Assembly: GCF_016903815.1 (NCBI RefSeq)
Contig: NZ_CP069973.1
DNA from: Escherichia coli
GTDB taxonomy: Bacteria; Pseudomonadota; Gammaproteobacteria; Enterobacterales; Enterobacteriaceae
DNA length: 64,000 bases
Reading direction: 5' to 3' (one strand)
Under the pieces are notes generated by a model that searched no databases, was not told the origin of the DNA, and saw only the letters and a program-made list of their open reading frames with translations. A program made the position numbers and the translations under genes. Positions within the stretch are counted from its first letter, which is position 1, and each line of letters opens with the position of its first letter. Shown here one piece after another: positions 1 through 22,330 of this stretch.

Positions 1-1
1 G

Positions 2-178: not shown

Positions 179-366
179 CGGATTGCCGCCGTGGGCCTTC
201 CCGTTCTGCTGATAACCCTTCCGGTTATATGTTATCTGGTGTGGTTATTCGTTAAACTACAGCGGTTGTCGCGGCGACAAAAGTGGCTGCGCAACCGGCT
301 GATGACCCGAAACGGGCATCCGCCGGTACGCCGTAGCCGCCAGAGACGCCATCGGAAGGAGTGAGC

Positions 367-1740: not shown

Positions 1741-1807
1741 ATAGTGAATGGCGCTTCGTTTACAAAGTAGAAAACGAAAGCGCCATCAATGTGCTGAGAA
1801 CAAGATT

Positions 1808-1898
1808 GCCTGATGCGCTACGCTTATCAGGCCTACAAAACCTGTTGAAAATATTGCTTTTGTAGACCGGATAAGGCGTTCACGCCGCATCCGGCATG
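1808..1898. repeat. REP/BIME-type palindromic units (two inverted REPs) downstream of hemN
   Basis: gcctgatgcgctacgcttatcaggcctac ... gtagaccggataaggcgttcacgccgcatccggcat, classic E. coli REP consensus. Confidence 0.8.
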
Positions 1899-1929
1899 AA
1901 CAAAGAGCACTTCATCAGCAATCTGAAAC

Positions 1930-2040
1930 TCAGCTAAACAGCCCAATCATCGCGGCACACAGCACGGCAGCAACGGCAGTTTGCGGTGTGTGGCTGTCAA
2001 CTGCGCCACTCGATACCAGATTAATTATTGATTCCAGCAT
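1930..2040 (-). CDS. yshB: Small protein YshB (36 aa, hydrophobic)
   Basis: Minus-strand ATG at 2040; translation MLESIINLVSSGAVDSHTPQTAVAAVLCAAMIGLFS*; position between hemN and glnG as in K-12; not in supplied ORF track (below length cutoff). Confidence 0.6.
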   Translation of the reverse strand: MLESIINLVSSGAVDSHTPQTAVAAVLCAAMIGLFS

Positions 2041-2151
2041 AATGACTCTCCCCGTTTTCCGGGCAAGATCATACTGAACTTATCGGAACAGTAAAGCGCA
2101 AAATACCAGCAATTTGCGCTCAATAATCAATCTTTACACACAAGCCGTGAA

Positions 2152-3561: not shown

Positions 3562-3572
3562 AAACGTCACCT

Positions 3573-4622: not shown

Positions 4623-4643
4623 AAAGCAGTCTCCTGAACAGGT

Positions 4644-4660
4644 TGCACCATTTTAGTGCA
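4644..4660 (-). promoter_or_regulatory. NtrC binding site in glnL promoter region (TGCACCA-N3-TAGTGCA)
   Basis: tgcaccattttagtgca palindrome in glnA-glnL intergenic region. Confidence 0.6.
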
Positions 4661-4711
4661 TTATAGCTTTTTACGGATAAAAAGCGCGTAGCATCAGAGA
4701 ATTGACGGAGA

Positions 4712-4795
4712 AAAAAGCCCATGCAGAGATGGGCTGAAAGTTTCCACGGCAACTAAATCCCGGCGTTGTTGCGCCGGGTAGTACAACTTCAACTA
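4712..4795 (-). ncRNA. glnZ: glnA 3'UTR ending in rho-independent terminator; candidate GlnZ 3'UTR-derived sRNA
   Basis: Downstream of glnA stop on minus strand: hairpin cccggcgcaacaacgccggg, then agcccatctctgcatgggct followed by TTTTTT at ~4712-4742; boundaries approximate. Confidence 0.35.
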
Positions 4796-6205
4796 TTAGA
4801 CGCTGTAGTACAGCTCAAACTCTACCGGATGCGGAGTCATACGCACGCGGTCATCTTCTTCGCGACGCAGAGCGATGTACGCATCGATCGCTTCATCAGT
4901 GAACACACCACCGGCTTTCAGGAACTCGCGGTCCAGATCCAGTTCGTTCAGTGCTTCTTCCAGAGAACCAGCAACCTGTGGGATCTCTTTCGCTTCTTCC
5001 GGCGGCAGGTCATACAGGTTTTTGTCCATCGCTTCGCCCGGATGGATCTTGTTCTTGATACCGTCAAGACCGGCCATCAGCAGGGCAGCAAAGCACAGGT
5101 ACGGGTTAGCCGCCGGGTCCGGGAAACGTACTTCGATACGACGTGCTTTCGGAGAAGAAACCACCGGAATACGGATAGACGCAGAACGGTTGCGTGCAGA
5201 GTAAGCCAGCATTACCGGTGCTTCGTAGCCCGGGACCAGACGCTTGTAAGAGTTGGTGGTCGGGTTTGCCAGGGCATTAATCGCTTTCGCGTGTTTGATT
5301 ACGCCGCCAATATAGTACAGCGCCTGCTCAGACAGACCTGCGTATTTGTCGCCTGCGAACAGGTTGACGCCGTTTTTAGACAGCGACATGTGGCAGTGCA
5401 TACCGGAGCCGTTATCACCGAACATCGGTTTTGGCATAAAGGTCGCGGTTTTACCGAAGCGGTGCGCTACGTTGTGCACAACATATTTGTAGATCTGAAT
5501 TTCGTCAGCTTTTTTGGTCATGGTATTGAAGCGGGTAGCCACTTCGTTCTGACCAGCAGTCGCTACTTCGTGGTGATGGGCTTCAACCACCAGGCCCATC
5601 TGTTCCATCACCAGACACATTTCAGAACGAATATCCTGAGCAGAGTCTACCGGCGGAACCGGGAAGTAACCGCCTTTCACTGCCGGACGGTGACCTTTGT
5701 TACCACCTTCGTATTGGGTGGAGGAGTTCCATGCGCCTTCGATATCGTCGATAGCAACGTGAGAACCGGAGATAGATGATCCGAAACGGATGTCATCGAA
5801 CAGGAAGAATTCAGGTTCTGGCCCGAACAGTACGGTGTCGGCAATGCCAGTGGAACGCAGGTAATCTTCGGCGCGCTTCGCAATGGAGCGCGGGTCACGG
5901 TCATAGCCTTGCAGGGTGCCAGGTTCAAGGATGTCGCAACGGATAATCAGGGTGGAGTCGGCGAAGAACGGGTCAATCACTGCGGTGGATGCGTCTGGCA
6001 TCAGCACCATGTCGGACTCGTTAATGCCTTTCCAGCCGCCAATCGAGGAGCCGTCAAACATTTTGCCTTCTTCGAAGAATTCAGCATTCACCTGATGAGC
6101 AGGGATAGTGACGTGCTGTTCTTTACCTTTAGTATCGGTGAAGCGCAAATCAACAAACTTCACTTCGTGCTCGTTCAGCATCGTCAGTACGTGTTCAGCG
6201 GACAT
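4796..6205 (-). CDS. glnA: Glutamine synthetase (type I)
   Basis: 469 aa [35 protein letters not shown]...; adenylylation-site region and C-terminus ...EFELYYSV. Confidence 0.97.
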
Positions 6206-6287
6206 ACTTTAACTCTCCTGGATTGGTCATGGTCGTCGTGGTAACGAAATCTGCAATTATTTTGGCCGTGTCGCCGTAAAAAAGATA

Positions 6288-6305
6288 AAGCGAAATCTGT
6301 GCCAA
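6288..6305 (-). promoter_or_regulatory. glnAp2 sigma-54 promoter (-24 TGGCAC / -12 element)
   Basis: Minus-strand TTGGCACAGATTTCGCTTTATC about 85 bp upstream of glnA ATG. Confidence 0.8.
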
Positions 6306-6354
6306 CTTTTAAATTGCCCCTAAAAGGCGTTATCATGCTTAACATCGTGCAAAA

Positions 6355-6428
6355 GGGCTGCACCATGATGTGAATGTTGCACCAATATAGTGCTTCAATG
6401 GAAACATTAAGCACCATATTGGTGCAAT
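6355..6428 (-). promoter_or_regulatory. NtrC enhancer sites upstream of glnA
   Basis: Repeated TGCACCA...TGGTGCA-type palindromes (tgcaccatgatg..., ttgcaccaatatagtgc, gcaccatattggtgca). Confidence 0.75.
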
Positions 6429-6577
6429 GACCTTTGGATAACCCTTTTTATGCTCCGTGAAAGCAATCACAAAGGGACTCTGCAATACTTGTTTGCGGAG
6501 GATGTTTGTGATCCTGTTTTGTAGTGCGATTAATCCGTGTACAATAACGCGCTATTTCTAATGCCTGAGGCAAAGTT

Positions 6578-8401
6578 GTGATCGAAAAATTGCGTAATAT
6601 CGCCATCATCGCGCACGTAGACCATGGTAAAACCACCCTGGTAGACAAGCTGCTCCAACAATCCGGTACGTTCGACTCTCGTGCCGAAACCCAAGAGCGC
6701 GTGATGGACTCCAACGATTTGGAGAAAGAGCGTGGGATTACCATCCTCGCGAAAAACACCGCTATCAAATGGAATGATTACCGTATCAACATCGTTGATA
6801 CCCCGGGGCACGCCGACTTCGGTGGTGAAGTTGAACGTGTAATGTCCATGGTAGACTCAGTGCTGCTGGTGGTTGACGCATTTGACGGCCCGATGCCGCA
6901 AACGCGCTTCGTAACCAAAAAAGCGTTTGCTTACGGCCTGAAGCCGATTGTTGTTATCAACAAAGTTGACCGCCCTGGCGCGCGTCCTGACTGGGTTGTG
7001 GATCAGGTATTCGACCTGTTCGTTAACCTCGACGCGACCGACGAGCAGCTGGACTTCCCGATCGTTTACGCTTCTGCGCTGAACGGTATCGCGGGTCTGG
7101 ACCACGAAGATATGGCGGAAGACATGACCCCGCTGTATCAGGCGATTGTTGACCACGTTCCTGCGCCGGACGTTGACCTTGACGGTCCGTTCCAGATGCA
7201 GATTTCTCAGCTCGATTACAACAGCTATGTTGGCGTTATCGGCATTGGCCGCATCAAGCGCGGTAAAGTGAAGCCGAACCAGCAGGTCACTATCATCGAT
7301 AGCGAAGGCAAAACCCGTAACGCGAAAGTCGGTAAAGTGCTGGGCCACCTCGGTCTGGAACGTATCGAAACCGACCTGGCGGAAGCTGGCGATATCGTGG
7401 CGATCACGGGCCTGGGCGAACTGAACATTTCTGACACCGTTTGCGACACGCAAAACGTTGAAGCGCTGCCGGCACTCTCCGTTGATGAGCCGACCGTTTC
7501 TATGTTCTTCTGCGTTAACACCTCGCCGTTCTGCGGTAAAGAAGGTAAGTTCGTAACGTCTCGTCAGATCCTGGATCGTCTGAACAAAGAACTGGTACAC
7601 AACGTTGCTCTGCGCGTAGAAGAAACCGAAGACGCCGATGCGTTCCGCGTTTCTGGTCGTGGCGAACTGCACCTGTCTGTTCTGATCGAAAACATGCGTC
7701 GTGAAGGTTTCGAACTGGCGGTATCCCGTCCGAAAGTTATCTTCCGTGAAATCGACGGTCGTAAACAAGAGCCGTATGAAAACGTGACTCTGGACGTTGA
7801 AGAACAGCATCAGGGTTCTGTAATGCAGGCGCTGGGCGAACGTAAAGGCGACCTGAAAAACATGAATCCAGACGGTAAAGGCCGCGTACGTCTCGACTAC
7901 GTGATCCCAAGCCGTGGTCTGATTGGTTTCCGTTCTGAGTTCATGACCATGACTTCCGGTACGGGTCTGCTGTACTCCACCTTCAGCCACTACGACGACG
8001 TACGTCCGGGTGAAGTGGGTCAGCGTCAGAATGGCGTACTGATCTCTAACGGTCAGGGTAAAGCGGTAGCGTTCGCGCTGTTCGGTCTGCAGGATCGCGG
8101 TAAGCTGTTCCTCGGTCACGGTGCAGAAGTTTACGAAGGTCAGATTATCGGTATTCATAGCCGCTCTAACGACCTGACTGTAAACTGCCTGACCGGTAAG
8201 AAACTGACCAACATGCGTGCTTCCGGTACTGACGAAGCCGTTGTTCTGGTTCCGCCTATCCGCATGACTCTGGAACAAGCTCTGGAGTTCATCGATGATG
8301 ACGAACTGGTAGAAGTGACTCCGACCTCTATCCGTATTCGTAAACGTCACCTGACGGAAAACGATCGTCGTCGCGCCAACCGCGCACCGAAAGACGATTA
8401 A
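6578..8401 (+). CDS. typA: Ribosome-associated translational GTPase BipA/TypA
   Basis: 607 aa, GTG start; G-domain motifs [22 protein letters not shown]-like domains. Confidence 0.95.
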
Positions 8402-8419
8402 TTTCGTTTTTTAGTTATA

Positions 8420-8451
8420 AAAAACCTGCCATCGCTGGCAGGTTTTTTTTT
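8420..8451 (+). terminator. Rho-independent terminator of typA
   Basis: cctgccatcgctggcagg stem followed by T9 run. Confidence 0.8.
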
Positions 8452-8454
8452 GTG

Positions 8455-9160
8455 CACAGAAAACCCCCAGCTAGGCTGGGGGTTCCGGAAAGCTTTCAGC
8501 TTTGAGCCAGTTATTAAAACCCCTTTTGATTTGTTAAAACACCTTGCGGTCTGGCAACTGCAAGTGTCAAACAAGAAATCAAAAGGGGGTCCCAATGGGG
8601 AACGAAAAGAGCTTAGCGCACACCCGATGGAACTGTAAATATCACATAGTTTTTGCGCCAAAATACCGAAGACAGGTGTTCTACAGAGAGAAGCGTAGAG
8701 CAATAGGCAGTATTTTGAGAAAGCTGTGTGAGTGGAAAAGCGTACGGATTCTGGAAGCTGAATGCTGTGCAGATCATATCCATATGCTTGTGGAGATCCC
8801 GCCCAAAATGAGCGTATCCGGGTTTATGGGATATCTGAAAGGGAAAAGCAGTCTGATGCTTTACGAGCAGTTTGGTGATTTGAAATTCAAATACAGGAAC
8901 AGGGAGTTCTGGTGCAGAGGGTACTACGTCGATACAGTGGGTAAGAACACGGCGAAGATACAGGATTACATAAAGCACCAGCTTGAAGAGGATAAAATGG
9001 GAGAGCAGTTATCGATTCCCTATCCGGGCAGCCCGTTTACGGGCCGTAAGTAACGAAGTTGGATGCAAATGTCAGATCGTGTGCGCCTGTTAGGGCGCGG
9101 CTGGTAAGAGAGCCTTATAGGCGCATTTGAAAAACCTCCGGCTATGCCGGAGGATATTTA
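8455..9160 (+). mobile_element. IS200/IS605-family insertion sequence (IS200-like, ~0.7 kb); ends approximate
   Basis: Single tnpA with HxH Y1-transposase signature, structured leader (cccccagctaggctggggg hairpin and RBS-sequestering stem) typical of IS200; no inverted repeats expected for this family. Confidence 0.7.
8595..9053 (+). CDS. tnpA: IS200-family Y1 (HUH) transposase TnpA
   Basis: 152 aa from ATG 8595: MGNEKSLAHTRWNCKYHIVFAPKYRRQVFY...HIHMLVEIPPK...; HxH motif and Tyr-containing C-terminal region. Confidence 0.85.
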   Translation: MGNEKSLAHTRWNCKYHIVFAPKYRRQVFYREKRRAIGSILRKLCEWKSVRILEAECCADHIHMLVEIPPKMSVSGFMGYLKGKSSLMLYEQFGDLKFKYRNREFWCRGYYVDTVGKNTAKIQDYIKHQLEEDKMGEQLSIPYPGSPFTGRK

Positions 9161-9328
9161 TTACCTGTCGTGAGCGCACACCAATGCGAGTATCTCCCTT
9201 ATAAGTCTGTGATTACGTCAATAGAGAGCTTTGTCACAATTATCTGCAAAGTCATACACCGTTAATTGCTTTCTTTTTTGGCGTAAGCGTAAGATGCTTC
9301 ATCTGGTTTAAACCAAAAGGATTAAACA

Positions 9329-10039
9329 ATGGCGGAGAATCAATCCACCGTAGAAAATGCAAAAGAGAAACTGGATCGGTGGTTGAAAGATGGCATCACC
9401 ACGCCGGGTGGAAAACTCCCTTCAGAAAGAGAGCTGGGAGAACTGCTGGGCATTAAACGTATGACGCTGCGCCAGGCGTTGTTGAACCTCGAGGCAGAAT
9501 CCAAAATCTTCCGTAAGGATCGTAAGGGGTGGTTCGTGACCCAGCCGCGATTTAATTACAGTCCGGAGCTGTCAGCGAGCTTTCAGCGGGCCGCAATTGA
9601 GCAAGGACGAGAGCCTTCTTGGGGGTTTACCGAGAAAAACCGTACCAGCGATATTCCCGAGACGCTCGCGCCACTGATTGCAGTGACACCATCAACTGAA
9701 CTCTATCGCATCACCGGCTGGGGGGCGCTGGAAGGACATAAAGTTTTCTATCACGAAACATATATTAATCCTGAAGTTGCTCCGGGTTTTATTGAACAAC
9801 TTGAAAACCACTCATTTTCTGCAGTCTGGGAAAAGTGCTACCAGAAAGAGACGGTAGTAAAAAAATTGATTTTCAAACCCGTCAGAATGCCGGGCGATAT
9901 CAGCAAGTATCTTGGCGGTTCTGCGGGTATGCCAGCGATCTTAATTGAAAAGCATCGCGCCGACCAGCAAGGCAATATTGTCCAGATAGATATTGAATAT
10001 TGGCGATTTGAGGCCGTAGACCTCATCATTAATCTGTAG
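9329..10039 (+). CDS. yihL: GntR-family HTH transcriptional regulator (UTRA effector domain)
   Basis: 236 aa; N-terminal wHTH (SERELGELLGIKRMTLRQAL); K-12 order typA-yihL. Confidence 0.85.
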   Translation: MAENQSTVENAKEKLDRWLKDGITTPGGKLPSERELGELLGIKRMTLRQALLNLEAESKIFRKDRKGWFVTQPRFNYSPELSASFQRAAIEQGREPSWGFTEKNRTSDIPETLAPLIAVTPSTELYRITGWGALEGHKVFYHETYINPEVAPGFIEQLENHSFSAVWEKCYQKETVVKKLIFKPVRMPGDISKYLGGSAGMPAILIEKHRADQQGNIVQIDIEYWRFEAVDLIINL

Positions 10040-10046
10040 GTGTTTT

Positions 10047-11027
10047 ATGGTGACAATAAATAACGCAAGAAAGATTCTACAACGTGTCGACACTCTTCCT
10101 CTTTATTTACATGCTTATGCCTTTCATTTAAATATGCGGCTGGAAAGAGTGTTGCCTGCTGATTTACTTGATATCGCAAGTGAAAATAATCTACGTGGCG
10201 TCAAAATCCATGTTCTGGACGGCGAGCGTTTTTCTCTTGGTAATATGGACGATAAAGAACTCTCTGCCTTTGGGGATAAAGCCCGCCGTCTGAACCTTGA
10301 TATTCATATTGAAACCAGCGCTTCAGATAAGGCATCTATTGACGAAGCCGTCGCCATTGCGTTGAAAACTGGGGCATCGTCCGTACGTTTTTATCCACGT
10401 TATGAAGGTAATTTGCGCGACGTATTATCGATCATCGCTAACGACATTGCCTATGTACGGGAAACGTATCAGGACAGCGGCCTGACTTTTACGATCGAAC
10501 AGCATGAAGATTTAAAAAGCCATGAGTTGGTGTCGCTGGTCAAAGAAAGTGAGATGGAATCTCTTTCCTTACTGTTTGATTTTGCGAACATGATCAATGC
10601 AAATGAGCATCCCATCGACGCTTTAAAAACGATGGCACCGCATATTACCCAGGTCCATATCAAAGATGCCTTGATCGTTAAAGAAGAGGGTGGCCTGGGT
10701 CATAAAGCCTGTATTTCAGGTCAGGGTGATATGCCGTTCAAAGCGTTATTAACGCACCTTATATGCCTGGGTGATGATGAGCCGCAGGTGACGGCATATG
10801 GCCTGGAAGAAGAGGTTGATTACTATGCGCCGGCGTTCCGCTTTGAAGACGAAGATGATAATCCGTGGATCTCTTATCGCCAGATGAGTGAAACACCATT
10901 GCCAGAAAATCATTTACTGGATGCGCGGTTACGTAAAGAAAAAGAAGATGCAATTAATCAGATAAATCATGTGCGTAACGTACTACAACAAATCAAACAA
11001 GAGGCAAACCATCTTCTGAACCACTAA
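10047..11027 (+). CDS. yihM: Sugar phosphate isomerase/epimerase (xylose-isomerase-like TIM barrel) family protein
   Basis: 326 aa; synteny yihL-yihM-yihN. Confidence 0.8.
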   Translation: MVTINNARKILQRVDTLPLYLHAYAFHLNMRLERVLPADLLDIASENNLRGVKIHVLDGERFSLGNMDDKELSAFGDKARRLNLDIHIETSASDKASIDEAVAIALKTGASSVRFYPRYEGNLRDVLSIIANDIAYVRETYQDSGLTFTIEQHEDLKSHELVSLVKESEMESLSLLFDFANMINANEHPIDALKTMAPHITQVHIKDALIVKEEGGLGHKACISGQGDMPFKALLTHLICLGDDEPQVTAYGLEEEVDYYAPAFRFEDEDDNPWISYRQMSETPLPENHLLDARLRKEKEDAINQINHVRNVLQQIKQEANHLLNH

Positions 11028-11128
11028 TAAGTTTTAACTCATACGCAGTTAATAAAACCATTCGATATGAATGGTCGGTATCTTATTGCCTTTAAAACAG
11101 TGATTTTAAAAATCGCTTAGGGGATGTT

Positions 11129-12394
11129 ATGCTCACGAAAAAGAAATGGGCGTTATTTAGTCTATTAACATTGTGTGGCGGTACAATTTATAAATTACCG
11201 TCGCTGAAAGATGCGTTTTATATCCCGATGCAGGAATATTTCCATTTGACCAATGGTCAAATTGGTAATGCTATGTCGGTAAACTCATTTGTCACGACAG
11301 TGGGCTTTTTTCTGTCTATTTATTTTGCCGATAAACTACCGCGCAGATACACCATGTCATTCTCACTCATTGCGACAGGATTACTGGGTGTTTATTTGAC
11401 GACAATGCCGGGGTATTGGGGCATCCTCTTTGTCTGGGCGCTATTTGGCGTTACTTGCGACATGATGAACTGGCCGGTCTTGCTCAAGTCGGTAAGTCGA
11501 TTGGGCAATAGCGAACAACAAGGTCGGTTGTTTGGCTTCTTCGAAACAGGGCGTGGCATTGTCGATACCGTGGTGGCATTTTCTGCGTTGGCAGTATTTA
11601 CCTGGTTTGGCAGTGGCTTATTGGGTTTTAAAGCAGGCATCTGGTTCTATTCCCTTATTGTGATTGCCGTAGGCATTATCATTTTCTTTGTTCTGAATGA
11701 CAAAGAAGAGGCACCGTCCGTTGAGGTGAAAAAAGAAGACGGAGCATCGAAAAACACCAGTATGACCTCGGTGCTGAAAGACAAAACTATCTGGCTTATC
11801 GCTTTCAACGTCTTCTTCGTTTACGCGGTTTACTGTGGCCTGACATTCTTCATTCCATTCCTGAAAAACATCTATCTATTGCCCGTTGCGCTGGTGGGGG
11901 CTTACGGCATCATTAACCAATACTGTCTGAAAATGATTGGTGGACCGATTGGTGGCATGATTTCAGATAAGATCCTGAAATCGCCGAGTAAATATCTATG
12001 CTACACCTTTATCATCAGTACCGCTGCGCTCGTACTGTTGATTATGCTGCCGCACGAAAGTATGCCGGTATATTTAGGGATGGCATGTACGCTGGGCTTT
12101 GGCGCGATAGTCTTTACACAGCGAGCCGTATTTTTTGCACCTATCGGCGAAGCAAAAATTGCTGAAAATAAAACAGGCGCGGCGATGGCGTTGGGTAGCT
12201 TTATTGGTTACGCCCCGGCGATGTTCTGCTTCAGTCTGTATGGCTACATTCTGGATTTAAATCCGGGGATTATTGGCTACAAAATTGTGTTTGGCATTAT
12301 GGCCTGCTTCGCATTCTGTGGTGCGGTGGTTTCCGTAATGCTGGTTAAGCGTATTAGCCAACGTAAGAAAGAGATGCTGGCGGCTGAAGCTTGA
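11129..12394 (+). CDS. yihN: MFS transporter
   Basis: 421 aa, 12 predicted hydrophobic segments. Confidence 0.85.
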   Translation: MLTKKKWALFSLLTLCGGTIYKLPSLKDAFYIPMQEYFHLTNGQIGNAMSVNSFVTTVGFFLSIYFADKLPRRYTMSFSLIATGLLGVYLTTMPGYWGILFVWALFGVTCDMMNWPVLLKSVSRLGNSEQQGRLFGFFETGRGIVDTVVAFSALAVFTWFGSGLLGFKAGIWFYSLIVIAVGIIIFFVLNDKEEAPSVEVKKEDGASKNTSMTSVLKDKTIWLIAFNVFFVYAVYCGLTFFIPFLKNIYLLPVALVGAYGIINQYCLKMIGGPIGGMISDKILKSPSKYLCYTFIISTAALVLLIMLPHESMPVYLGMACTLGFGAIVFTQRAVFFAPIGEAKIAENKTGAAMALGSFIGYAPAMFCFSLYGYILDLNPGIIGYKIVFGIMACFAFCGAVVSVMLVKRISQRKKEMLAAEA

Positions 12395-12400
12395 TTAATG

Positions 12401-12478
12401 GCCGGATGTGGCTTAATCCGGCCAACGGAAACCGTATCAACCGTAGGCCGGATAAGGCGTTTTCGCCGCATCCGGCAG
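12401..12478. repeat. REP/BIME palindromic units
   Basis: gccggatgtggcttaatccggc ... gtaggccggataaggcgttttcgccgcatccggcag. Confidence 0.8.
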
Positions 12479-12485
12479 TTTTACA

Positions 12486-13178
12486 TCAGAAGAAATACTT
12501 CGTCCCGATACGAATCTGGTTTTGCTCGCGGTGGTACGGTTCGACATTACGATCTAACCAGCGTAATTCGAAATAAGGGAGCCAGTGTTCATTAATGCGA
12601 TAACGGAAGGTGTTAGTGATTTCCCAGTGATGATCTTTTCCATTGCTGCTATTAAAGTCATTTACTCGCATGAAGTAATGTGGTTCAAATGTATAGGAGA
12701 ATTTCTCGGTGATTTTAAAATTCCAGTAGGTGCCAACTTCATAGGTGTCGTTATTATCCAATTCGCCGTTCAAATCTGTAGAGCTGTAATTATTATGGTT
12801 ATAGCGATTACGCACCGTCAGGTTAAACCACGGAGTAAATTTGTAGTTAACATCCAGATAAACGGCACCACCCGAACCGATACTCTTGTCATTAATTAAG
12901 CCACCGGGCTGGATGGTTAATTTATCGGTTGGTTTAAATAAAGGATACCAACCTTCAATTTCATTATAGCCATGTTTGAGTTCATCTTCTCGCTGAAAGG
13001 TGTAGGTATTGGTTAACATAATACCCGCGCCCATATCGAAGTTATAACCCACGCGTAGCATAACTTCGCCCTGATCGGAGGCGAGATTATATGCCTCCCT
13101 GTTTTCGACGTATGCGCCAGCAAATACCGAGGCAGAGGTCAGAGAGGATAATAGAATTATTGCATTAATCTTTTTCAT
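12486..13178 (-). CDS. ompL: Outer membrane porin L
   Basis: 230 aa from ATG 13178 (MKKINAIILLSSLTSASVFA signal peptide), C-terminal ...RIGTKYFF. Confidence 0.85.
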   Translation of the reverse strand: MKKINAIILLSSLTSASVFAGAYVENREAYNLASDQGEVMLRVGYNFDMGAGIMLTNTYTFQREDELKHGYNEIEGWYPLFKPTDKLTIQPGGLINDKSIGSGGAVYLDVNYKFTPWFNLTVRNRYNHNNYSSTDLNGELDNNDTYEVGTYWNFKITEKFSYTFEPHYFMRVNDFNSSNGKDHHWEITNTFRYRINEHWLPYFELRWLDRNVEPYHREQNQIRIGTKYFF

Positions 13179-13244
13179 AATAAGTCCATTTTTAAACGTA
13201 GGGAGGCCGCCACCCACCAGGATGGAAATAGCGGCTATTGACAT

Positions 13245-14648
13245 TTATAACGTTACGGAAGCCGTTTTTTCTTCTGTCGCCATCTCTTTATTTTTGCGTT
13301 GGTTGATTTCCTCAATAATCAATGCAAACCGTTTTTCATTGAGTGTGTAAAAGAATCCCATCGTCAATGCAGCAATAATTGCCAGTGCACAAGGCCAGAT
13401 AAAAATGAGCTGACGCAAACCCTGTAATGTCGCATCACTTTGCGCGATGTTGGGAACATAACCGATTTGCGTCAGCATAATGCCTGGCAAGAAGCCAGCA
13501 AGTGCGGCAGAAATTTTACGAAAGAAGGTATAACCGGTATAAACAGAACCTTCGGCACGAATACCGGTTTTCCATTCACCGTAATCTACGGTATCTGGCA
13601 CCAGTGCCCAGTTCAGGCTGTTTACAAAGGCCGTGCCAAAAAAGGCGACACAAGAGAACATGACGAAAGTGAAAGAGTTACTTCCCCAGAAATAATTCAG
13701 GATATCACCAACCGCCCATAGCACCATGCCAGCTAAATAAACCTGTTTTTTACCAAAACATTTTACAGTTAATGGCACCAGTAATACGCCGACGAGGATA
13801 CATCCCATACTGAAAAATCCCATCCACGACAATAAATTAATATCATTCAGCACATACTGGGTGTAATAGACCTGAATCGCCAGTTTGATATTAAATGCCG
13901 CCAGGGTACACAGGTTAGCAATGCACAAAACCAGCAATGGCGGATTACGAAATATCGCGCAAAAAGATTTGAGAATACTGGCTTTATGTCCGGTTGGCGT
14001 CGTGTCCACATAATGCTCTTTGACGCCTCTGTAGCACAGCATCATAAAAATAAAGCCACCAATGGAGAACATCAGTGCCGCGCAGGCATAACCGACGGTG
14101 GAGTCAGAAAAAAGCGACTGCAACGGAATAAACGCCACGGTACAAATCAATAGCCCTATGGTTGCACCACCCTGGCGGTAAGCCGCGAGCTGCGCGCGCT
14201 CATTCGGGTTTTTGGTAATTGCCGGGATCATCGCACCATACGAGCAGTTCATCAGACTGTATGAAAGTCCAAACATCATAAACAGTGCGGTGGCAATCGT
14301 CGTTTTAACCGGCAAACTAAAGGTGGTGGCGATAAACTGGAGCGTTGCAATTAACGCCGCCGGAACCGCTGCATATAAAATAAAGGGACGAAATTTGCCT
14401 TTAGGCCCAATATTTTTCCGCGAGTCGAGTAAAAATCCGGTGAGCATATCGGTAAACGCGGTAAAAAACTTCGCCACCAGAAAGATAATCCCGCCATAGT
14501 AAGCAGGCATCCCTAATTCATCGGTATAAAATTTGAGGAGATACAGAGTACCGATGCAGAGCATTAAATTCGAACCGACGTCGCCCATACCATAGGCGAT
14601 TTTTTCCCGCAGATTCAGTCTTAATGTCAGTGGATTATGGTCAGACAT
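13245..14648 (-). CDS. yihO: Sulfoquinovose importer (GPH-family sugar:cation symporter)
   Basis: 467 aa from ATG 14648 with AAGGAG SD; paralogous to adjacent yihP. Confidence 0.9.
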   Translation of the reverse strand: MSDHNPLTLRLNLREKIAYGMGDVGSNLMLCIGTLYLLKFYTDELGMPAYYGGIIFLVAKFFTAFTDMLTGFLLDSRKNIGPKGKFRPFILYAAVPAALIATLQFIATTFSLPVKTTIATALFMMFGLSYSLMNCSYGAMIPAITKNPNERAQLAAYRQGGATIGLLICTVAFIPLQSLFSDSTVGYACAALMFSIGGFIFMMLCYRGVKEHYVDTTPTGHKASILKSFCAIFRNPPLLVLCIANLCTLAAFNIKLAIQVYYTQYVLNDINLLSWMGFFSMGCILVGVLLVPLTVKCFGKKQVYLAGMVLWAVGDILNYFWGSNSFTFVMFSCVAFFGTAFVNSLNWALVPDTVDYGEWKTGIRAEGSVYTGYTFFRKISAALAGFLPGIMLTQIGYVPNIAQSDATLQGLRQLIFIWPCALAIIAALTMGFFYTLNEKRFALIIEEINQRKNKEMATEEKTASVTL

Positions 14649-14690
14649 AATCACTCCTTATAACGCCCCGCAGGGCGTTGTTTATTATAA

Positions 14691-16076
14691 TTACGCCGTG
14701 CGTTTACGGGCTTCTATCTCTTCAACAATGCGGACGTACATCTTCTCGTTCAGACTGTAGAAGCAACCCATCGCCACAATGGTGACTACTGCCAGTGCGC
14801 TTGGGTAGATGAAGATCAGCTGGCGCAACCCTTCAATGGTGTGGTCAGCCTGTGCGACGTTTGGCACATAGCCGATTTGCGTCAGCATCCAGCCTGGGAA
14901 GAAACCTGCCAGCGCCTGAGATACTTTGCGAAAGAAGGTGAAGCCGGTGTAGACCGTACCTTCCGAACGCACACCGGTGCGCCACTCGCCGTACTCGACG
15001 GTGTCGGAAACCAGCGCCCAGTTCAGGCTGTTAACAAACGCCGAGCCGAAGAATGCCAGGCAGGAGAACGCCACAAAGCTGACCGAGCCGCCGCCGAAGA
15101 AATAGTTGAGCAGATCGCCCAGCACCCAAATCAGCAGGCCGCCGATATAGACCTTCTTCTTACCAAAACGTCTGACTGCGCCAGGCATCAGGAACACGCC
15201 GATGAAAATACAGCCCATGCTGAAAAATCCCATATACGACAACAGGATGGGATCGTTAAGTACGTACTGGGTGTAATAGACCTGGATGGCGAGCTTGACG
15301 TTAAACGCCCCTAAAGTGCAGAGGTTGGCAATGCACAGAATGAACAGCGGGCGGTTACCGGCAATTGCGCGGAAAGATTGCAACAGGCCTGGCTTTTGCG
15401 CCGGATTGGTAGGTTGGGTTTCGACATAACGCTCTTTCACGCCCGAGTAGCAGATCCACATAAACAGCAGGCCGAACAGTGAAAACAGCGTGGCAGCGAA
15501 GATATAGCCAATTTGCTGATTACCTTCGATAAGATTCATAACCGGCACGAATCCCACCGTACACAGCAGTAAGCCCAATGTAGCGCCACCCTGACGCCAT
15601 GCTGCCAGCGATGCGCGTTCGTTGGGGTTTTTGGTAATAGCGGGGACCATTGCGCCGTAGGAGCAGTTCATCATGCTGAAAAACAGCCCGTAGAGCATAA
15701 ACAGAATAGTGGCCATCACCGTTTTACCGGTGACATCAAACGGTGTGCCGACAAAGTTGGCGATCGCCAGCAGAGTGACCGGGAATGATGCATACAGAAT
15801 AAAAGGGCGGAATTTGCCTTTTGGACCGATCTTGCGCCGGGAATCGAGCATGATGCCGGTACCCATATCGGTAAAGGCGGTAAAGAATTTCGAGATCAAA
15901 AAGATAATGCCGCCATAGGTGCCGGGCAGCCCCAGAACGTCGGTATAAAACTTCAAAAGATAAAGCGTGCCGATATCCAGCAGGATGTTAGAGGCCAGAT
16001 CGCCGATACCGTAAGAGAGTTTCTCTTTAAAGGGCAGACGTAAAGTAGCCGGATCTTCCGTTGTGATGTGACTCAT
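14691..16076 (-). CDS. yihP: GPH-family transporter (putative DHPS exporter / SQ-related permease)
   Basis: 461 aa from ATG 16076 with AGGGAGA SD; strong similarity to yihO product. Confidence 0.9.
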   Translation of the reverse strand: MSHITTEDPATLRLPFKEKLSYGIGDLASNILLDIGTLYLLKFYTDVLGLPGTYGGIIFLISKFFTAFTDMGTGIMLDSRRKIGPKGKFRPFILYASFPVTLLAIANFVGTPFDVTGKTVMATILFMLYGLFFSMMNCSYGAMVPAITKNPNERASLAAWRQGGATLGLLLCTVGFVPVMNLIEGNQQIGYIFAATLFSLFGLLFMWICYSGVKERYVETQPTNPAQKPGLLQSFRAIAGNRPLFILCIANLCTLGAFNVKLAIQVYYTQYVLNDPILLSYMGFFSMGCIFIGVFLMPGAVRRFGKKKVYIGGLLIWVLGDLLNYFFGGGSVSFVAFSCLAFFGSAFVNSLNWALVSDTVEYGEWRTGVRSEGTVYTGFTFFRKVSQALAGFFPGWMLTQIGYVPNVAQADHTIEGLRQLIFIYPSALAVVTIVAMGCFYSLNEKMYVRIVEEIEARKRTA

Positions 16077-16121
16077 CGTTGTTCTCCCTTTGCCCGTGAG
16101 TTTCCCCACGGGCGGACGTGA

Positions 16122-18158
16122 TTAGATGCTTTTTAACGACGCGAACAGTGCCGCCCATTCGCTATCGGCGCGATAAAAGACCGGCGGCTTGCCGATGGGC
16201 GCATTAACGGTCACTTCCCCGCCCCGGAATGCTTCACCCGTCCAGGCATGGACCCAGTTATCCTCCGGCAGATAGAGCGTCCAGTCGCTACGGCCTTCTT
16301 CATGCACCGGAGCGACCAGAATGTCGCGGCCTAACAGGTACTGATATTTCAGGGTGTAGGTCTGCGCGTCGTCTTCGTAATGCAGGAACAGCGGGCGCAT
16401 GACCGGCAGACCGGACTTCGCATTCAGCGCGACGGCCTCTTTCAGATAAGGTTTCAGGGTGGTGAAGACGGTGGTCATACGGGCGAAATGGGCGATGGTT
16501 TCCGCGTCGCCGTCAAACTGCCAGTTGTCGCCAGGACGGTTACCTTCGTGGGTGCGCATCATCGGCGTGAAGGCGCTGAAATCGCACCAGCGCAGCAGCA
16601 GCTCTTTGCTGCGCTTCATCTCAAACAGGGTGGTGTAACCGCCAATGTCGCTGTGATGCAGGCCATGTCCGGTCATTGCCAGCGACAGCGCCGCCGGGAC
16701 AACCGACGCCAGGCCATCGTCGAGACTCCAGTCGACGTTCTGGTCGCCCGCCCACATCATGGTGGAGTATTTCTGGCTACCGGTAGAACCGGCGCGCATA
16801 AAGAAGAGGATCTCGCCGAGCTTGCCCGTTTCTTCAAGGGCTTCGTAGTTACATTTCGCCCACAGCGCAGGCCAGGCGTTATGCATAATTTCCGCGCTGA
16901 CGCCGTTATGCAGGTACGTGTCGGTGGGCAGATACTCGCCGAAGTCAGCCATCCAGCCGCCGCAGCCAAGTTCAATCATGTTCTTTTTGATCACTTCCTT
17001 GAACCAGGCGTAGGCTTCTGGATTGGTGAGGTCGACAACGCCGCCATAGAACTCGCCAAACTCCACCAGATAGTCGCCGCCAGAGGCATCTTTTGCCAGA
17101 TAACCGCGCTTTGCCGCCTCTTCGCAGAGATCTTTATCGCTGGCTACATACGGGTTGATATAGGCCAGGAACTGCACGCCCTCTTTGTTCCACTGCTTAA
17201 TACGTGAGTCCAGTTGCGGATAGTTTTCGCTGTTCCACTTCCAGTTCCACATTACGCGTTTGCCAAAAGAGGTCATACGGATCCCGGACCAGTCCTGCGC
17301 CCAGATGCCGTTAACCTTCACACCCGCGTTACGCATGGTGTCCAGTTTCTTCTGACACACTTCCGTCCCGCCCTGAATGCCGAGCGTTACCCCGTCATAA
17401 ATCCAGTCGGGCAGTTCTGGCTGGCGTCCCAGCAGGGCAGTTAATTTTTCCAGCAGGGAGATGTATGTATCAGCACATTCAAAACGCAGCGTTGCTTTGT
17501 CTTCCCACAGCGCCAGTTCATGGTATTCCGGGGCGCTAAAGTCGAAGTTCATGTAGCAACTGTTATCAACATGGCAGTAATACTTCTGCGTGCTGACAAA
17601 CGTAGGCTGTGGGAAGAAAGTCCAGTAATAGTCGCCGCCCGCGTTCTCTTTGCAGTCGGCCTGCCAGGTGACATAGGTTTGCTTGTTGCGACCAACGCCT
17701 TGTTCACTGGTCCATAGCGGGAACGGTTTGCCGCGCAGATCGAAGTAGGAAAACTGTTCGCCGCAGCCGTAGATATGGTCCTCTGGTTGAGCGGCAAGGC
17801 GCAGCCAGATGCGGTTGTGGTTAAGGTTGTCGTTTTGTAGTTCCAGCAATAAACGGCCCTGATCGTCGGCAGAGATATTCAGCGTGGCGCTAATGTCAGA
17901 ACCACGGCTGAAATGGATTAACCAACCATCCGGTGACTGGCTGACGATGGCGTCGGTAAGCGCAATTTTCTCCTGTAGTTTATCTTTAATGCTGAAATTG
18001 CCGCGGAACATATCGATATCCGCAATACCTGAACCAATCCATAAACAAGGATTATCTTTGCTATGGGTTAAAATAAGACGCTGTTGAAAATGTAGGGTAA
18101 AACAGTCGTTATTCTGATGAAACTGAAAATCTGGTAATTGTGGGCGTGGCGTATCCAT
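16122..18158 (-). CDS. yihQ: Sulfoquinovosidase (GH31 alpha-glycosidase family)
   Basis: 678 aa; GH31-like motifs (WMADFGE..., GWTGDQ-like region). Confidence 0.92.
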   Translation of the reverse strand: MDTPRPQLPDFQFHQNNDCFTLHFQQRLILTHSKDNPCLWIGSGIADIDMFRGNFSIKDKLQEKIALTDAIVSQSPDGWLIHFSRGSDISATLNISADDQGRLLLELQNDNLNHNRIWLRLAAQPEDHIYGCGEQFSYFDLRGKPFPLWTSEQGVGRNKQTYVTWQADCKENAGGDYYWTFFPQPTFVSTQKYYCHVDNSCYMNFDFSAPEYHELALWEDKATLRFECADTYISLLEKLTALLGRQPELPDWIYDGVTLGIQGGTEVCQKKLDTMRNAGVKVNGIWAQDWSGIRMTSFGKRVMWNWKWNSENYPQLDSRIKQWNKEGVQFLAYINPYVASDKDLCEEAAKRGYLAKDASGGDYLVEFGEFYGGVVDLTNPEAYAWFKEVIKKNMIELGCGGWMADFGEYLPTDTYLHNGVSAEIMHNAWPALWAKCNYEALEETGKLGEILFFMRAGSTGSQKYSTMMWAGDQNVDWSLDDGLASVVPAALSLAMTGHGLHHSDIGGYTTLFEMKRSKELLLRWCDFSAFTPMMRTHEGNRPGDNWQFDGDAETIAHFARMTTVFTTLKPYLKEAVALNAKSGLPVMRPLFLHYEDDAQTYTLKYQYLLGRDILVAPVHEEGRSDWTLYLPEDNWVHAWTGEAFRGGEVTVNAPIGKPPVFYRADSEWAALFASLKSI

Positions 18159-18265
18159 AAATAATCTCCATAGAGTATAAAGCTAATATTTCATGCCATC
18201 CTGTTGTTACAGGTTTCATTAATTAAAGAATGTGTGCGGGTATAAATTAAAACCCGCATAAGTGA

Positions 18266-19141
18266 TTATTTACTTTCTTCAGCCCGGCGGATTGCCGCCA
18301 CTTTTTTACCAAATGCCAGTTGCAGTATAACTAACAAGGTAAAAGGAGGCAGAAGCGCGGCAGCAGCGGGAATTCCCAGCGCGCCTTTTATCAACATAGA
18401 ACCGGAGGCAATCAGCAACAAAAAGACCATCACACGGAACACTTTGACTGAAATGCGTTTATGCACATATTGTCCAACCAGTGAACCGAGGATCATGGTG
18501 GGAATACAAAACAGCACCAGTTTAAAGATAGAAACAGTCAAAATTCCGCTGGTCGCCAGCCCGCCGATCACCGCGATGTTGTTTGCGGTGAAGAAAGCGT
18601 TCAGAGTGCCACGAAATGCCGCCGGGCCTAAGTTACGCAGCATACCGTAGATAACCATCGGCGGTCCGTTGGTTGAGAACGCCGCGCCTAATGCGCCAGC
18701 TACTGCGCCGATAGGTGCGGCGATCCAGTTACGGTCATAAATCGGCAGGCGAGGAATAAACATGCTGTAAAACGAGTAAAGGATAAGGAATCCGCCTAAG
18801 CCCACTTTCATAAAATGGTCGGGTAAATACGACAGCGCATATAAACCGACGGGTATTCCCAGAAACGAGAAAATAATCAGTACCATTGCCGATCGCCAAT
18901 CCGTTTCTTTACGTGACAGCCAGGTGGCGTACAAGGCGGTCGCGGTGCCGACAATCACCGAGAGCGGAGTTGCCATTTTTACGGGGAGCATTAACGTGAC
19001 GAGCGGCATAGTGGTTAAACCACCGCCAAATCCCGCGCATATCCCCACAAAGGTATAAAGAAACATTAACGCGATAACGATACATACCACGCTTGTTTCC
19101 ACCATGGCCCCATCCGGCGAAAATAACGTAAAAAAGTCCAT
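18266..19141 (-). CDS. TauE/SafE-family (DUF81) membrane permease, putative sulfite/organosulfonate exporter
   Basis: 291 aa, ~8 hydrophobic helices, Gly-rich repeats typical of TauE/SafE (FVGICAGFGGGL..., two-fold internal repeat); AGGA SD 6 nt before ATG; embedded between yihQ and yihR. Confidence 0.7.
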   Translation of the reverse strand: MDFFTLFSPDGAMVETSVVCIVIALMFLYTFVGICAGFGGGLTTMPLVTLMLPVKMATPLSVIVGTATALYATWLSRKETDWRSAMVLIIFSFLGIPVGLYALSYLPDHFMKVGLGGFLILYSFYSMFIPRLPIYDRNWIAAPIGAVAGALGAAFSTNGPPMVIYGMLRNLGPAAFRGTLNAFFTANNIAVIGGLATSGILTVSIFKLVLFCIPTMILGSLVGQYVHKRISVKVFRVMVFLLLIASGSMLIKGALGIPAAAALLPPFTLLVILQLAFGKKVAAIRRAEESK

Positions 19142-19201
19142 AATATTTCCTGTTGTGTAAATACAACCCTAAACAATGATCTCGTTCTTTTCTTAATAAA
19201 A

Positions 19202-20104
19202 TTAATTGTGCTGCCCGTGAATATTAAAAAACAGGCGGTGCGTTTTTCCTGGTTCCAGTAATAATAAGTCGATACCTGAATTAAAGGCGTTAGGCGGGCA
19301 ACTCATAGGTTCAACTGCCAGTCCCTGACGCTGTAATTTTTCACCGCTATAAACCTGCACCCAGGGTTGATCGGAACAGAGGCTCACCGAAAGCGCCTGT
19401 TGTGGATGGGTAATGGTTATTTCCCACAGATCATTAGCGGTTTTAAAGGTATGGTCTATTTTTGTCGCGGCTATTTTTGTCGCCCGCGTGAAATTTAAAT
19501 TCAGCTCATCAACGTGGTGAAGCGTTGTCGGATTTGCGTGCTCATCGACGGCATAAACCTGTTCTGCCGGAAGCTGGAAAAGATAGTCATCAACAGATGT
19601 TAAGTTGCAGGTTAAATAAGGATGAATACCCACACCATAAGGTGCGGTCACAGTACCAATATTCTGGCTTGCGATCTCAACGGAAAGACCCGTGCGTGCA
19701 TTGAGCGAATAAACAACTTGTGAAGCCAGCATAAACGGATAGCCGTAACTGGGCGGCAGAAAAGCTGTCAGGGTAACGCTGGTGGCGGTTAATTCGCTAA
19801 TTTGCCAGTCACGCCAGGCAAGCAGCCCGTGAATAGCGGCTTTTGAACTATGTTCATTAATGGGTAACTGATAGTCCTGCCCCTGATAGCGATAACAGCC
19901 GTTGGCGATCCGGTTCGGCCACGGAATAAGCACTTTACCCAGATGCGCCAGCGGCATCTCTTCGGGTTTGTGCGGGATGACTAAATGACAACCCTGAAAG
20001 GTTAATTCAGCCAGACCAGCACCAACCGTCACGATAGTCGCGTGATAATCCCCCGCGGCAAGTGAAACGGTTTGTCCACTGCAATGCATGTTGGTGATTT
20101 GCAT
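19202..20104 (-). CDS. yihR: Aldose-1-epimerase family protein (sulfoquinovose mutarotase)
   Basis: ~300 aa from ATG 20104 (MQITNMHCSGQTV...), SD AAGGTG; alternative GTG start at 20113. Confidence 0.88.
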   Translation of the reverse strand: MQITNMHCSGQTVSLAAGDYHATIVTVGAGLAELTFQGCHLVIPHKPEEMPLAHLGKVLIPWPNRIANGCYRYQGQDYQLPINEHSSKAAIHGLLAWRDWQISELTATSVTLTAFLPPSYGYPFMLASQVVYSLNARTGLSVEIASQNIGTVTAPYGVGIHPYLTCNLTSVDDYLFQLPAEQVYAVDEHANPTTLHHVDELNLNFTRATKIAATKIDHTFKTANDLWEITITHPQQALSVSLCSDQPWVQVYSGEKLQRQGLAVEPMSCPPNAFNSGIDLLLLEPGKTHRLFFNIHGQHN

Positions 20105-20171
20105 ACGAGGCACCTTTATTGAATAACGACATACCCGGCATGTAGCCTGATATGCCGTTATTTCAGCTCAG

Positions 20172-21413
20172 TTATTTCGCGTTAACGTCCAGCAGGCCTG
20201 CGGCAACAGCCGGAGCCAGGCCTGGCGCTAACGGGATACGCGGGATCACCAGGCAATGCAGCAGGTGATAAATATCCTGTTTGCCGTCCCAGACTTTCGT
20301 GGTGACTTTATTGTCCGCATCCAGCTCCTGCCACCAGGAACCATTTTCATAGTCCATCAGGTACTTAATGCAGTAGTCCCACCATGTCTGATACCAGGTT
20401 TCATACTGGCGATCGCCGGTGGCGGTGTAGAGCGCGTAAGCCGTACCCATCGCTTCGACGATAGGCCAACGCACACGTTCGCGGACCACCGGTTTGCCTT
20501 CCCAGTCAACGGTATAAACAATCCCGTCCGCGCCATCGGGTGCCCAGGCATCGCGCACGGTGGCGTTAAATAGACCTTTGGCATCTTCTAGCAGCCAGGC
20601 AGGCGGCTGTTCACAACGGGCTTCCAGGGCCGCGTGGATGTGCAGCATTAAACGGCCCCATTCGATCCAGTGGCCCGGCGTGCCACCGAATGCGCGGAAG
20701 CGGTGCGCCGGGTTATCTTTGTTGTAATCCGGCAGCGGATTCCACTGGGTATCGAAGTGCTCGTTAACGCGATAATGATTATTTCTGGCGACGTCGTGGA
20801 TAATCACGGAAGCCACGCGAATCGCGCGATCCAGCCATTTTTTGTCATGGGTGACGTCATAGACAATCAGGAAGGCTTCCACCGCGTGCATGTTGGCATT
20901 GCCGCCGCGGTACTCTTCGGTTTTGCTGAAGGCTTCGTCCCAGGACTCCAGGCACATCTGCTCTTCTTCGCTCCAGAAGTATTTCTCAATAATTTCAATG
21001 GCGTAATCGAGAAGTTTACGGGCTTCCGGGTGACCGGTAGTGACGGCGCTGGCAGCACCCAGCAGAGCAAAGAAGTGTTGATAGCCCTGTTTGGAGGCAT
21101 CCACCACGCCCTCGTCATTCACGCAGGCATACCAACCGCCATATTTTTTATCGCGCAGTGCGCCGTTCATGGCTTTGATACCGTGATCAACCAACGAGTA
21201 AGCGCCAGGTCGACCCATCGCCGCAGCAACGGAATAAACGTGCAACATACGAGCGGTGATCCACAGATGGGTGCCCATCTCTTCTTTGATTTGCCCTTTA
21301 TTGCCTAACCAGCCAAATCCGGTCGGTACTACGGAATTTTTACCAAAATCAAAGATGCGGTCGGTTTCCTGTTCCAGCCAACGGTTGTGACTTAAGGTGT
21401 TAAACCATTTCAT
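20172..21413 (-). CDS. yihS: Sulfoquinovose isomerase (AGE/N-acyl-glucosamine 2-epimerase fold)
   Basis: 413 aa [23 protein letters not shown]... Confidence 0.92.
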
Positions 21414-21428
21414 TTTTGTATCCCCATC

Positions 21429-22307
21429 TTAACGGCGTTTAGCCATCATTTCGTCGACGATATCGCCAAGTTGTTGTAATTTAGGTGCGCAAACGTCACG
21501 CAGCATCAGCTCGTTGTCTGGTAAACCGACAACCGATGCCCAGACGGCACGACCAGCCAGGAAGCCCGATGCACCCGCTGTCATTGCCACGCGTACGGCA
21601 CGCGGGAACAGTTTTTCGTCGACACCGGAAGAAAGTATCACCCACGGCATATTGATATGGTCATTCAGACGTTGTGAAGCACTGAGAAGCTCTTGTTGCG
21701 GACCTTTACCGTAAAGCGGCATTTCAACTTTGTAGAGGTCAGCGCCACTGTCGCCCAGCTCTTTAGCAGCATCGATGATCGCTTGTTCGCGATCGAATTT
21801 ATCGCCACGACGTGGTGGGCGGACGACTGGCTCAATAATGCTTACCAGGCCGTGTGAGTGGCACAGTTCGTTAAACTCTTTCACCATATCCAGACGTTGC
21901 TGCGCATCTTCATCACTACGCCACAGCACCAGCAGTTTTAAGGCTTTGCCACCGTCTTGTTTGATTTGTAGCGGATTGATTTTGCGGTCAATGACCACGC
22001 TATCTACCGGAATACCGTTGCCAGGAATGAACTCATCGGCGGCGACAATCATGGCGCAACTTTTGGCAATCGCGTTTTGCTCAACCACCTGGCGGTAACA
22101 GAATTGCTGATCCACCAGAATCGCCGAGGCATAAGGCGAGAGGGCCTTTGCAGCGTTAACTTTGAAATCAGTTAAAACGCTATCGGCTACTGGAGCGGGT
22201 GCCCCAGCCGCGGCAAACATCATGCGCATGGCTTCGCGTTGATCGACCGCCAGCATGGCAAAACCGCCCGATGCGCGTGTAATGTCGTTGATGGTGTACT
22301 TATTCAT
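21429..22307 (-). CDS. yihT: 6-deoxy-6-sulfofructose-1-phosphate aldolase
   Basis: 292 aa; class I aldolase-like; synteny. Confidence 0.92.
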
Positions 22308-22330
22308 TCATTTATTCCTTTATCCAGTCG

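Follow-up and report, generated by a model that had tools for sequence, protein, structure and literature searches.

What does a membrane permease of the TauE/SafE family do inside a sulfoquinovose (SQ) catabolic cluster, in a species whose reference strain K-12 does without it? The question is raised by a stretch of 64,000 nucleotides of Escherichia coli DNA (contig NZ_CP069973.1, assembly GCF_016903815.1), the window of this study, whose yih cluster carries, between yihR and yihQ, a gene that we call tauE. Export is the least characterised step of the pathway, and the symporter YihP has been called its exporter by inference only. We propose that the tauE product is an inner-membrane anion permease of the TSUP family dedicated to SQ catabolism, most likely exporting 2,3-dihydroxypropane-1-sulfonate (DHPS). 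Weighing the comparative evidence below, we give this reading a probability of roughly 0.55.

Part of this was known before: the gene is annotated, the literature already deals with TauE permeases in sulfoglycolysis clusters, and a role read from gene context accords with the field's assumption. New are the polarity of the change and the finding that the K-12 allele arose once, the isolation of the enterobacterial clade with its extra helix, the occurrence of that clade in two types of SQ cluster and the transporter arrangement of Klebsiella.

An intact permease gene between yihR and yihQ

The interval 18159-19201 is the exact gap between the start of yihQ (18158) and the stop of yihR (19202), and it contains a single open reading frame (ORF), tauE. 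Here the window agrees at 100% identity with E. coli strain 7/2, whose copy of the ORF bears the RefSeq annotation WP_000345433.1, "sulfite exporter TauE/SafE family protein". The window's sulfo-EMP (sulfo-Embden-Meyerhof-Parnas) cluster is confirmed to be complete, with an intact tauE-type permease gene in its midst; the K-12 cluster is made of 10 genes, ompL and yihO-W (PMC8006165). The original prediction, drawn from the letters of the window, had yihQ and yihR as direct neighbours in K-12, and so they are: in K-12-type genomes, a J53 derivative included, they lie 198 nt apart with no gene between them.

The 291-residue membrane protein is encoded by a real gene, not by a chance ORF, and it is under strong purifying selection. 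Its ratio of nonsynonymous to synonymous substitution rates (dN/dS) is 0.029 when compared with Escherichia whittamii. Relative to Salmonella its dN is 0.0875, like that of the neighbouring genes (0.076-0.098), and the start codon and the N-terminus are kept there, as is the AGGAAA ribosome-binding site.

Membership in the TauE/SafE family, also claimed at the outset, stands. In Pfam-A, PF01925 (formerly DUF81) matches residues 23-248 of the protein with E=4.7e-35 and 121.8 bits, spanning model positions 2-235 of 237. No NCBIfam model matches the protein, and a sequence search of the PDB found no relative with a solved structure.

An AlphaFold2 model built on an alignment of 106 sequences (mean pLDDT 94.5, pTM 0.90) predicts two equivalent sets of five helices. 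The first spans residues 16-128 (16-36, 40-49, 54-75, 82-105 and 108-128) and the second residues 138-255 (138-155, 159-168, 173-198, 203-227 and 232-255), each with a Gly/Pro-rich break after its first helix. An additional C-terminal transmembrane helix, residues 259-290, is peculiar to the clade. In the same alignment, of about 30% identity, G37 is invariant, while F38, G39, P46, G145, G149, G152, G159, P160 and P161 are at least 90% conserved. The TSUP fold, in the description ascribed to Shlykov et al. 2012, is said to comprise about eight helices arising from an internal duplication, 4+4 transmembrane segments; the model has a duplicated polytopic fold as well, of 2 x 5 helices plus the C-terminal one.

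A Gly-rich two-fold repeat had been read directly from the sequence. The glycine columns and the duplicated helices of the model bear it out, but the repeat is barely detectable by sequence: hhalign of the two halves, using the diverse alignment, aligns them in register with E=0.03, and with close homologues only (Neff 1.3) it found nothing. The repeat is thus supported mainly by the predicted structure. A Foldseek search with the model returned nothing at E<=1e-3, its best match being BacA/UppP (TM-score 0.42-0.50, E=0.013). We do not read this likeness to an enzyme, not a transporter, as meaningful, since the match is not significant.

Sulfoquinovose clusters that carry the permease clade

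Relatives were sought in a representative library of 1.84 billion proteins that stand for about 15 billion. It holds 5635 relatives at E<=1e-3, yet only one full-length cluster at 50% identity for the tauE protein. Members of this clade are 77-99% identical and come from Enterobacterales and one Vibrio; beyond it, no relative exceeds 38% identity, and the next ones are about 240 residues long and devoid of the C-terminal helix. Two of the nearest (36-38% identity) have unrelated genomic contexts, giving no functional lead.

For the clade itself, a scan of genomes with peptide patterns yielded 5 loci, the patterns being too exact, and was widened by look-ups of exact proteins. In all 16 loci examined, the permease gene lies inside an SQ cluster: 7 are of the sulfo-EMP type and 9 of the sulfo-Entner-Doudoroff (sulfo-ED) type. 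The order R-tauE-Q is found in the sulfo-EMP clusters of E. coli, E. whittamii and two Salmonella, the order Q-tauE-P-O in Atlantibacter and Enterobacteriaceae RIT691, and in Klebsiella quasipneumoniae Q-tauE is followed by a single gene of the GPH family. The sulfo-ED loci belong to Kluyvera, Enterobacter kobei, Hafnia, Leminorella, Edwardsiella, Vibrio owensii, Raoultella, Mixta and Pantoea. They encode a LacI regulator, an SSS symporter, an IlvD/Edd dehydratase, an HpcH/HpaI aldolase, a mutarotase, an SGL lactonase, a YihU-like dehydrogenase and an SDR enzyme, with tauE last. The SDR enzyme of V. owensii matches PDB entry 9gwu, "Sulfoquinovose 1-dehydrogenase", with E=1.6e-95 (1.5e-57 for the next entry), and in the other eight loci the Pfam domain architecture is that of the V. 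owensii cluster; we therefore read all nine as sulfo-ED.

The only enzymes common to both pathways are the mutarotase and the YihU-like 3-hydroxyacid dehydrogenase. Sharing so few enzymes, the two types of cluster have in common their substrate and their predicted product. A YihU-type reductase is present in every one of the 16 clusters and an aldehyde dehydrogenase in none, so DHPS is the expected product.

The transporter inventory is equally regular. Sulfo-ED clusters have exactly one SSS symporter besides TauE. The sulfo-EMP cluster of K. quasipneumoniae has one YihO-like GPH symporter and TauE, with no YihP; this symporter is 71.5-75% identical to YihO and 65-67% to YihP.

Some of these loci have features of their own. 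In E. kobei, the sulfo-ED cluster and a sulfo-EMP cluster lacking yihR between yihS and yihQ stand at most 2 kb apart, and one tauE is seen in this 17-kb stretch (1-16876 of the locus). The Raoultella and Pantoea sulfo-ED clusters are abutted by a DeoR (CsqR-like) gene, and those of Kluyvera and Raoultella lie beside typA-glnA, the chromosomal neighbourhood of the E. coli yih cluster. In Pantoea sp. BRR-3P, the conjugation genes TrbC, VirB4, TrbL and AlpA directly follow the sulfo-ED cluster and a KdgM/OmpL-type porin gene (10122-18882 of the locus); here the cluster may lie on the border of an integrative element.

Proposed substrate and direction of transport

In the mechanism that we favour, the sulfolactaldehyde (SLA) reductase YihU would make DHPS, the anionic C3-sulfonate end product, and the TauE-type permease, transcribed together with yihUTSR, would export it across the inner membrane. 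K-12-type E. coli, having lost tauE in a single event, would use another route, for which the literature proposes YihP. The sulfo-EMP pathway does end at DHPS (PMC6278857). A permease serving sulfoglycolysis, probably as the DHPS exporter, was one suggestion of the original prediction, and it would fit all 16 loci across two non-homologous pathways.

The argument is in part one of bookkeeping. We favour DHPS export because a cluster is expected to need one importer and one exporter, and an SSS symporter or a YihO-like GPH symporter together with TauE would make up such a pair. Deletion of yihO in K-12 abolishes growth on SQ, which identifies YihO as the importer, while YihP is described as the DHPS exporter only with the words "most likely" (PMC6278857). 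YihP is 63% identical to YihO and so resembles a sugar symporter. It shares with tauE the same cluster and the same proposed job, but its fold and family are unrelated; K-12 keeps YihP without TauE, whereas K. quasipneumoniae keeps the YihO-like gene and TauE without YihP. This last arrangement calls the exporter role assigned to YihP into question. Perhaps TauE and YihP are redundant or are alternatives to each other, or else YihP is a second importer.

Proteins of the same family occupy similar places elsewhere. SftE of the Bacillus/Firmicutes sulfo-transaldolase (sulfo-TAL) clusters, the sulfolactate (SL) exporter of the sulfo-ED clusters of P. putida SQ1 and Rhizobium leguminosarum, and TauE of Arthrobacter AK04 all belong to PF01925, lie inside an SQ cluster and are predicted exporters of a C3-sulfonate, SL or DHPS (PMC7491151; PMC8873060; bioRxiv 10.1101/2019.12.17.868638). 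The clusters of Denger 2014 and Felux 2015 also contained TauE transporters, according to the passage on them in PMC8940949. The enterobacterial clade is at best distantly related to the SftE/SL-exporter type, being isolated in sequence (at most 38% identity to all else) and, with its extra C-terminal helix, about 291 residues long rather than the roughly 240 of other TSUP relatives. It also goes with clusters that have a DHPS-forming SLA reductase, whereas several of the named exporters go with an SL-forming SLA dehydrogenase.

Several points weigh against DHPS export. The clade transports by prediction, and at no more than 38% identity to other TSUP members it is too remote for a function to be transferred by close homology. 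In the sulfo-ED clusters, the YihU-like enzyme is 27-31% identical to YihU and scores 143 bits, below the NCBIfam cut-off of 348 for SLA reductase, which makes DHPS only the presumed product there. TSUP takes its name from an uptake permease, that of 4-toluenesulfonate. The TauE/TSUP proteins of these clusters have been read as SQ importers (PMC8940949). Finally, K-12, which has no tauE, is reported to grow on SQ and to export DHPS (PMC6278857), so tauE would be dispensable or redundant.

Among the alternatives, the one that survives best is that TauE carries another anion or metabolite linked to SQ, for instance in detoxification of sulfolactaldehyde or sulfolactate, or that it has a role other than product transport. 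What TSUP proteins carry is poorly defined (PMC8873060), the clade stands apart from every characterised member and the weak nearest fold, BacA/UppP, is that of an enzyme. We nevertheless consider it unlikely: the simplest accounting of transporters points to the end product, and the structural match falls short of significance.

An importer of SQ or of an SQ glycoside, acting beside or in place of the GPH and SSS symporters, would suit both the origin of the TSUP name and the published suggestion of SQ import. Every cluster examined, though, already has a sugar-type cation symporter, either GPH (YihO/YihP) or SSS, and YihO is required for growth of K-12 on SQ (PMC6278857). With TauE as an importer, the sulfo-ED and Klebsiella clusters would each encode two importers but lack an exporter, and we regard this as quite unlikely.

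The names given by Pfam and RefSeq evoke a sulfite exporter, which would clear the sulfite released by desulfonation of DHPS or sulfolactate. TauE of Cupriavidus necator is described as such (Weinitschke 2007, as cited in PMC8873060), and a paper on the sulfofucose pathway assigns sulfite export to a TauE homologue (PMC12421959). TauE of C. necator H16 and SafE, the founding members of the family, which export sulfite or sulfoacetate in the degradation of C2-sulfonates, do share with our protein the family and the link to organosulfonates. They are encoded, however, beside desulfonating enzymes that release sulfite, whereas in the pathway considered here the product is an intact sulfonate (PMC6278857). 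No C-S-cleaving enzyme (SuyAB, Xsc, a glycyl-radical enzyme of HpsG type or a monooxygenase) is found here or in the 15 other loci, whether inside the cluster or in its flanks. The neighbours of tauE are pathway enzymes, transporters, regulators and backbone genes, and every cluster gene has a role in the sulfo-EMP or sulfo-ED pathway, the former ending at DHPS (PMC6278857). The idea that the permease exports sulfite in strains that go further, put forward with the original prediction, thus finds no desulfonating enzyme in or next to the cluster to lean on, and sulfite export appears very improbable.

Least probable of all is that tauE currently has no function in E. coli and is a passenger, decaying or neutral: its absence from about two thirds of the long-cassette genomes, and from a K-12 with no reported loss of growth on SQ (PMC6278857), would agree with this, but a dN/dS of 0.029, an essentially full length in 1287 of 1295 carriers and 77-86% identity across genera as distant as Vibrio do not.

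Distribution and origin of the K-12-type allele

Among 5426 complete E. coli genomes, tauE is present in 1295 (23.9%) and the yihQ-yihR junction in 3987. By subtraction, about 2690 genomes have the long cassette without tauE, as K-12 does, and about 1440 have no such junction. Such a frequency, for a gene already annotated and of a published theme (PMC7491151; PMC8873060; PMC8940949), removes the rarity and novelty that the original prediction implied. In carriers the gene is always chromosomal, with a median of one place per genome and one genome with two, and in all but one carrier its nucleotide identity is 96.5-100%. An intact coding sequence is annotated in every carrier listed.

The genomes without the junction match the "short" cassette, yihTUVW, described by Kaznadzey et al. 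2025 (PMC12608037). That survey covers only ompL-yihOPQRSTUVW and yihTUVW, with 0 mentions of TauE, exporter or permease. The long cassette with tauE is therefore a third common yih variant, of about 24% of complete genomes, that the survey missed. Its long and short cassettes lie at the same locus and, like the presence or absence of tauE, form a polymorphism scattered by recombination.

The original prediction had tauE inserted into the cluster; the comparison points the other way. The gene occupies the identical slot between yihR and yihQ in Salmonella enterica (86% amino-acid identity) and E. whittamii (99%), and it has diverged from Salmonella just as much as the flanking genes have, as for a gene that travelled with the cluster. 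The K-12-type allele has 141 unrelated nt in place of about 985 nt. Local alignment and blastn-short find only the last ~57 nt of the 198-nt spacer, upstream of yihQ, to be homologous to the allele with tauE, with no remnant of tauE in the other 141 nt, which match nothing in the tauE region; the allele is thus no clean deletion but a replacement. This spacer is common to four tauE-minus E. coli whose flanking haplotypes differ, with a few point differences in the most divergent strain, so that the minus allele arose once. In trees of the flanks (the yihR 3' and yihQ 5' segments), plus and minus alleles of E. coli are interspersed, with the tauE-positive outgroups E. whittamii and Salmonella outside, which indicates that the indel has been shuffled by recombination within E. 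coli. It is most parsimonious to take tauE as ancestral in Escherichia and Salmonella and the K-12 state as probably derived by a single loss.

A mobile-element origin of tauE was considered and rejected: in E. coli the gene is never on plasmids, and its junctions have no flanking repeats or insertion sequences.

Recombination has made the cluster as a whole a mosaic, whose identity to a K-12-type strain is 88-99.5% and lowest beside the indel. Identity to the K-12-type allele dips to 90-94% at 12530-13130 (ompL) and 15330-16130 (the 5' part of yihP), amid stretches of 98-99%, and it falls to 88% at the 3' end of yihR, next to the indel. yihR is also the most divergent gene of the cluster, with 70% amino-acid identity to Salmonella (84-96% for the other genes) and a dN/dS of 0.19 versus the K-12-type allele (0.01-0.08 for its neighbours).

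Between E. coli and E. whittamii, tauE is much closer than the two genes beside it. At 99% amino-acid identity, its dS is 0.16, against 0.55 for the adjacent yihR and 0.39 for yihQ. This hints at interspecies recombination at tauE (8001-8873 in the E. whittamii locus) or at an unusually strong constraint.

Other length differences were seen nearby. The yihS-yihR spacer (20105-20171) measures about 60 nt here and 137 nt in the K-12-type strain (10235-10371 of its locus), which has some 75-80 nt extra. E. coli B-JRPT-4119 is tauE-minus and has also lost the 5' end of yihQ to another deletion (1-750 of its locus); RefSeq annotates this yihQ as a pseudogene. Between typA and yihL, about 680 nt (8452-9130) are absent from the K-12-type strain and contain an ORF (8544-9053, plus strand) for a 169-residue transposase of the IS200/IS605 family (NF033573, E=2.6e-43).

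As for expression, the spacer between yihR and tauE is 60 nt long, and a terminator scan found no terminator-like site on the strand of the gene in either spacer, its single minus-strand site lying inside the tauE coding sequence (19093-19068). A sigma-70 scan found no promoter-like site on the tauE strand. The papers searched contained neither expression nor mutant data for a tauE-positive strain of Enterobacterales. So short a spacer with no terminator-like site argues for co-transcription with yihR, and a yihUTSR-tauE transcript is likely.

The 117-nt spacer between tauE and yihQ folds as RNA with -22.8 kcal/mol (z=-2.4) and contains a hairpin shortly after tauE; Salmonella has a different hairpin at the same place. 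The hairpin may act as a weak terminator or may stabilise the RNA. The last ~57 nt, the only part of this spacer common to K-12-type strains, hold the palindrome CCTGTTGTTACAGG. A search of Rfam gave nothing in 17900-19500.

Table. Coordinates in the window of tauE, its neighbours and the signals around it.
Feature	Position	Strand	Remarks
tauE-like gene	18266..19141	-	291-aa ORF, ATG start; TSUP/TauE-SafE permease; PF01925
yihQ, sulfoquinovosidase	16122..18158	-	Downstream neighbour of tauE; NF007746, 1245 bits; RefSeq annotation
yihR, sulfoquinovose mutarotase (aldose-1-epimerase)	19202..20104	-	Upstream neighbour of tauE; NF011719, 615 bits; RefSeq start
Whole sulfo-EMP cluster	12486..25110		Minus strand: ompL-yihO-yihP-yihQ-tauE-yihR-yihS-yihT-yihU; plus strand: yihV-csqR(yihW)
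Ribosome-binding site AGGAAA	19146..19151	-	4 nt upstream of the tauE ATG; conserved in E. whittamii and Salmonella
Hairpin UGCGGGU, 10-nt loop, ACCCGCA	18234..18258	-	7 bp, then a weak U-rich tract; 8-32 nt past the tauE stop
Palindrome CCTGTTGTTACAGG	18200..18213		About 45 nt upstream of the yihQ ATG, within the last ~57 nt of the spacer

SQ breakdown by Enterobacteriaceae releases DHPS, which gut Bilophila and Desulfovibrio turn into H2S (PMC6278857, PMC12330013). Tentatively, we extend our proposal to this exchange: the enterobacterial TauE clade, and not YihP, may be the original dedicated DHPS exporter, portable between sulfo-EMP and sulfo-ED pathways, with K-12 as a natural loss-of-exporter variant, and the polymorphism (~24% versus ~50% of complete genomes) might tune the hand-over of DHPS to sulfite-respiring, H2S-making gut bacteria.

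Should TauE be a dedicated exporter, the textbook pathway of K-12 would be a reduced variant. A common polymorphism of E. coli, fixed in the Salmonella genomes examined, would then affect rates of cross-feeding, and the TSUP family would gain a member that is amenable to genetics and whose physiological substrate is defined.

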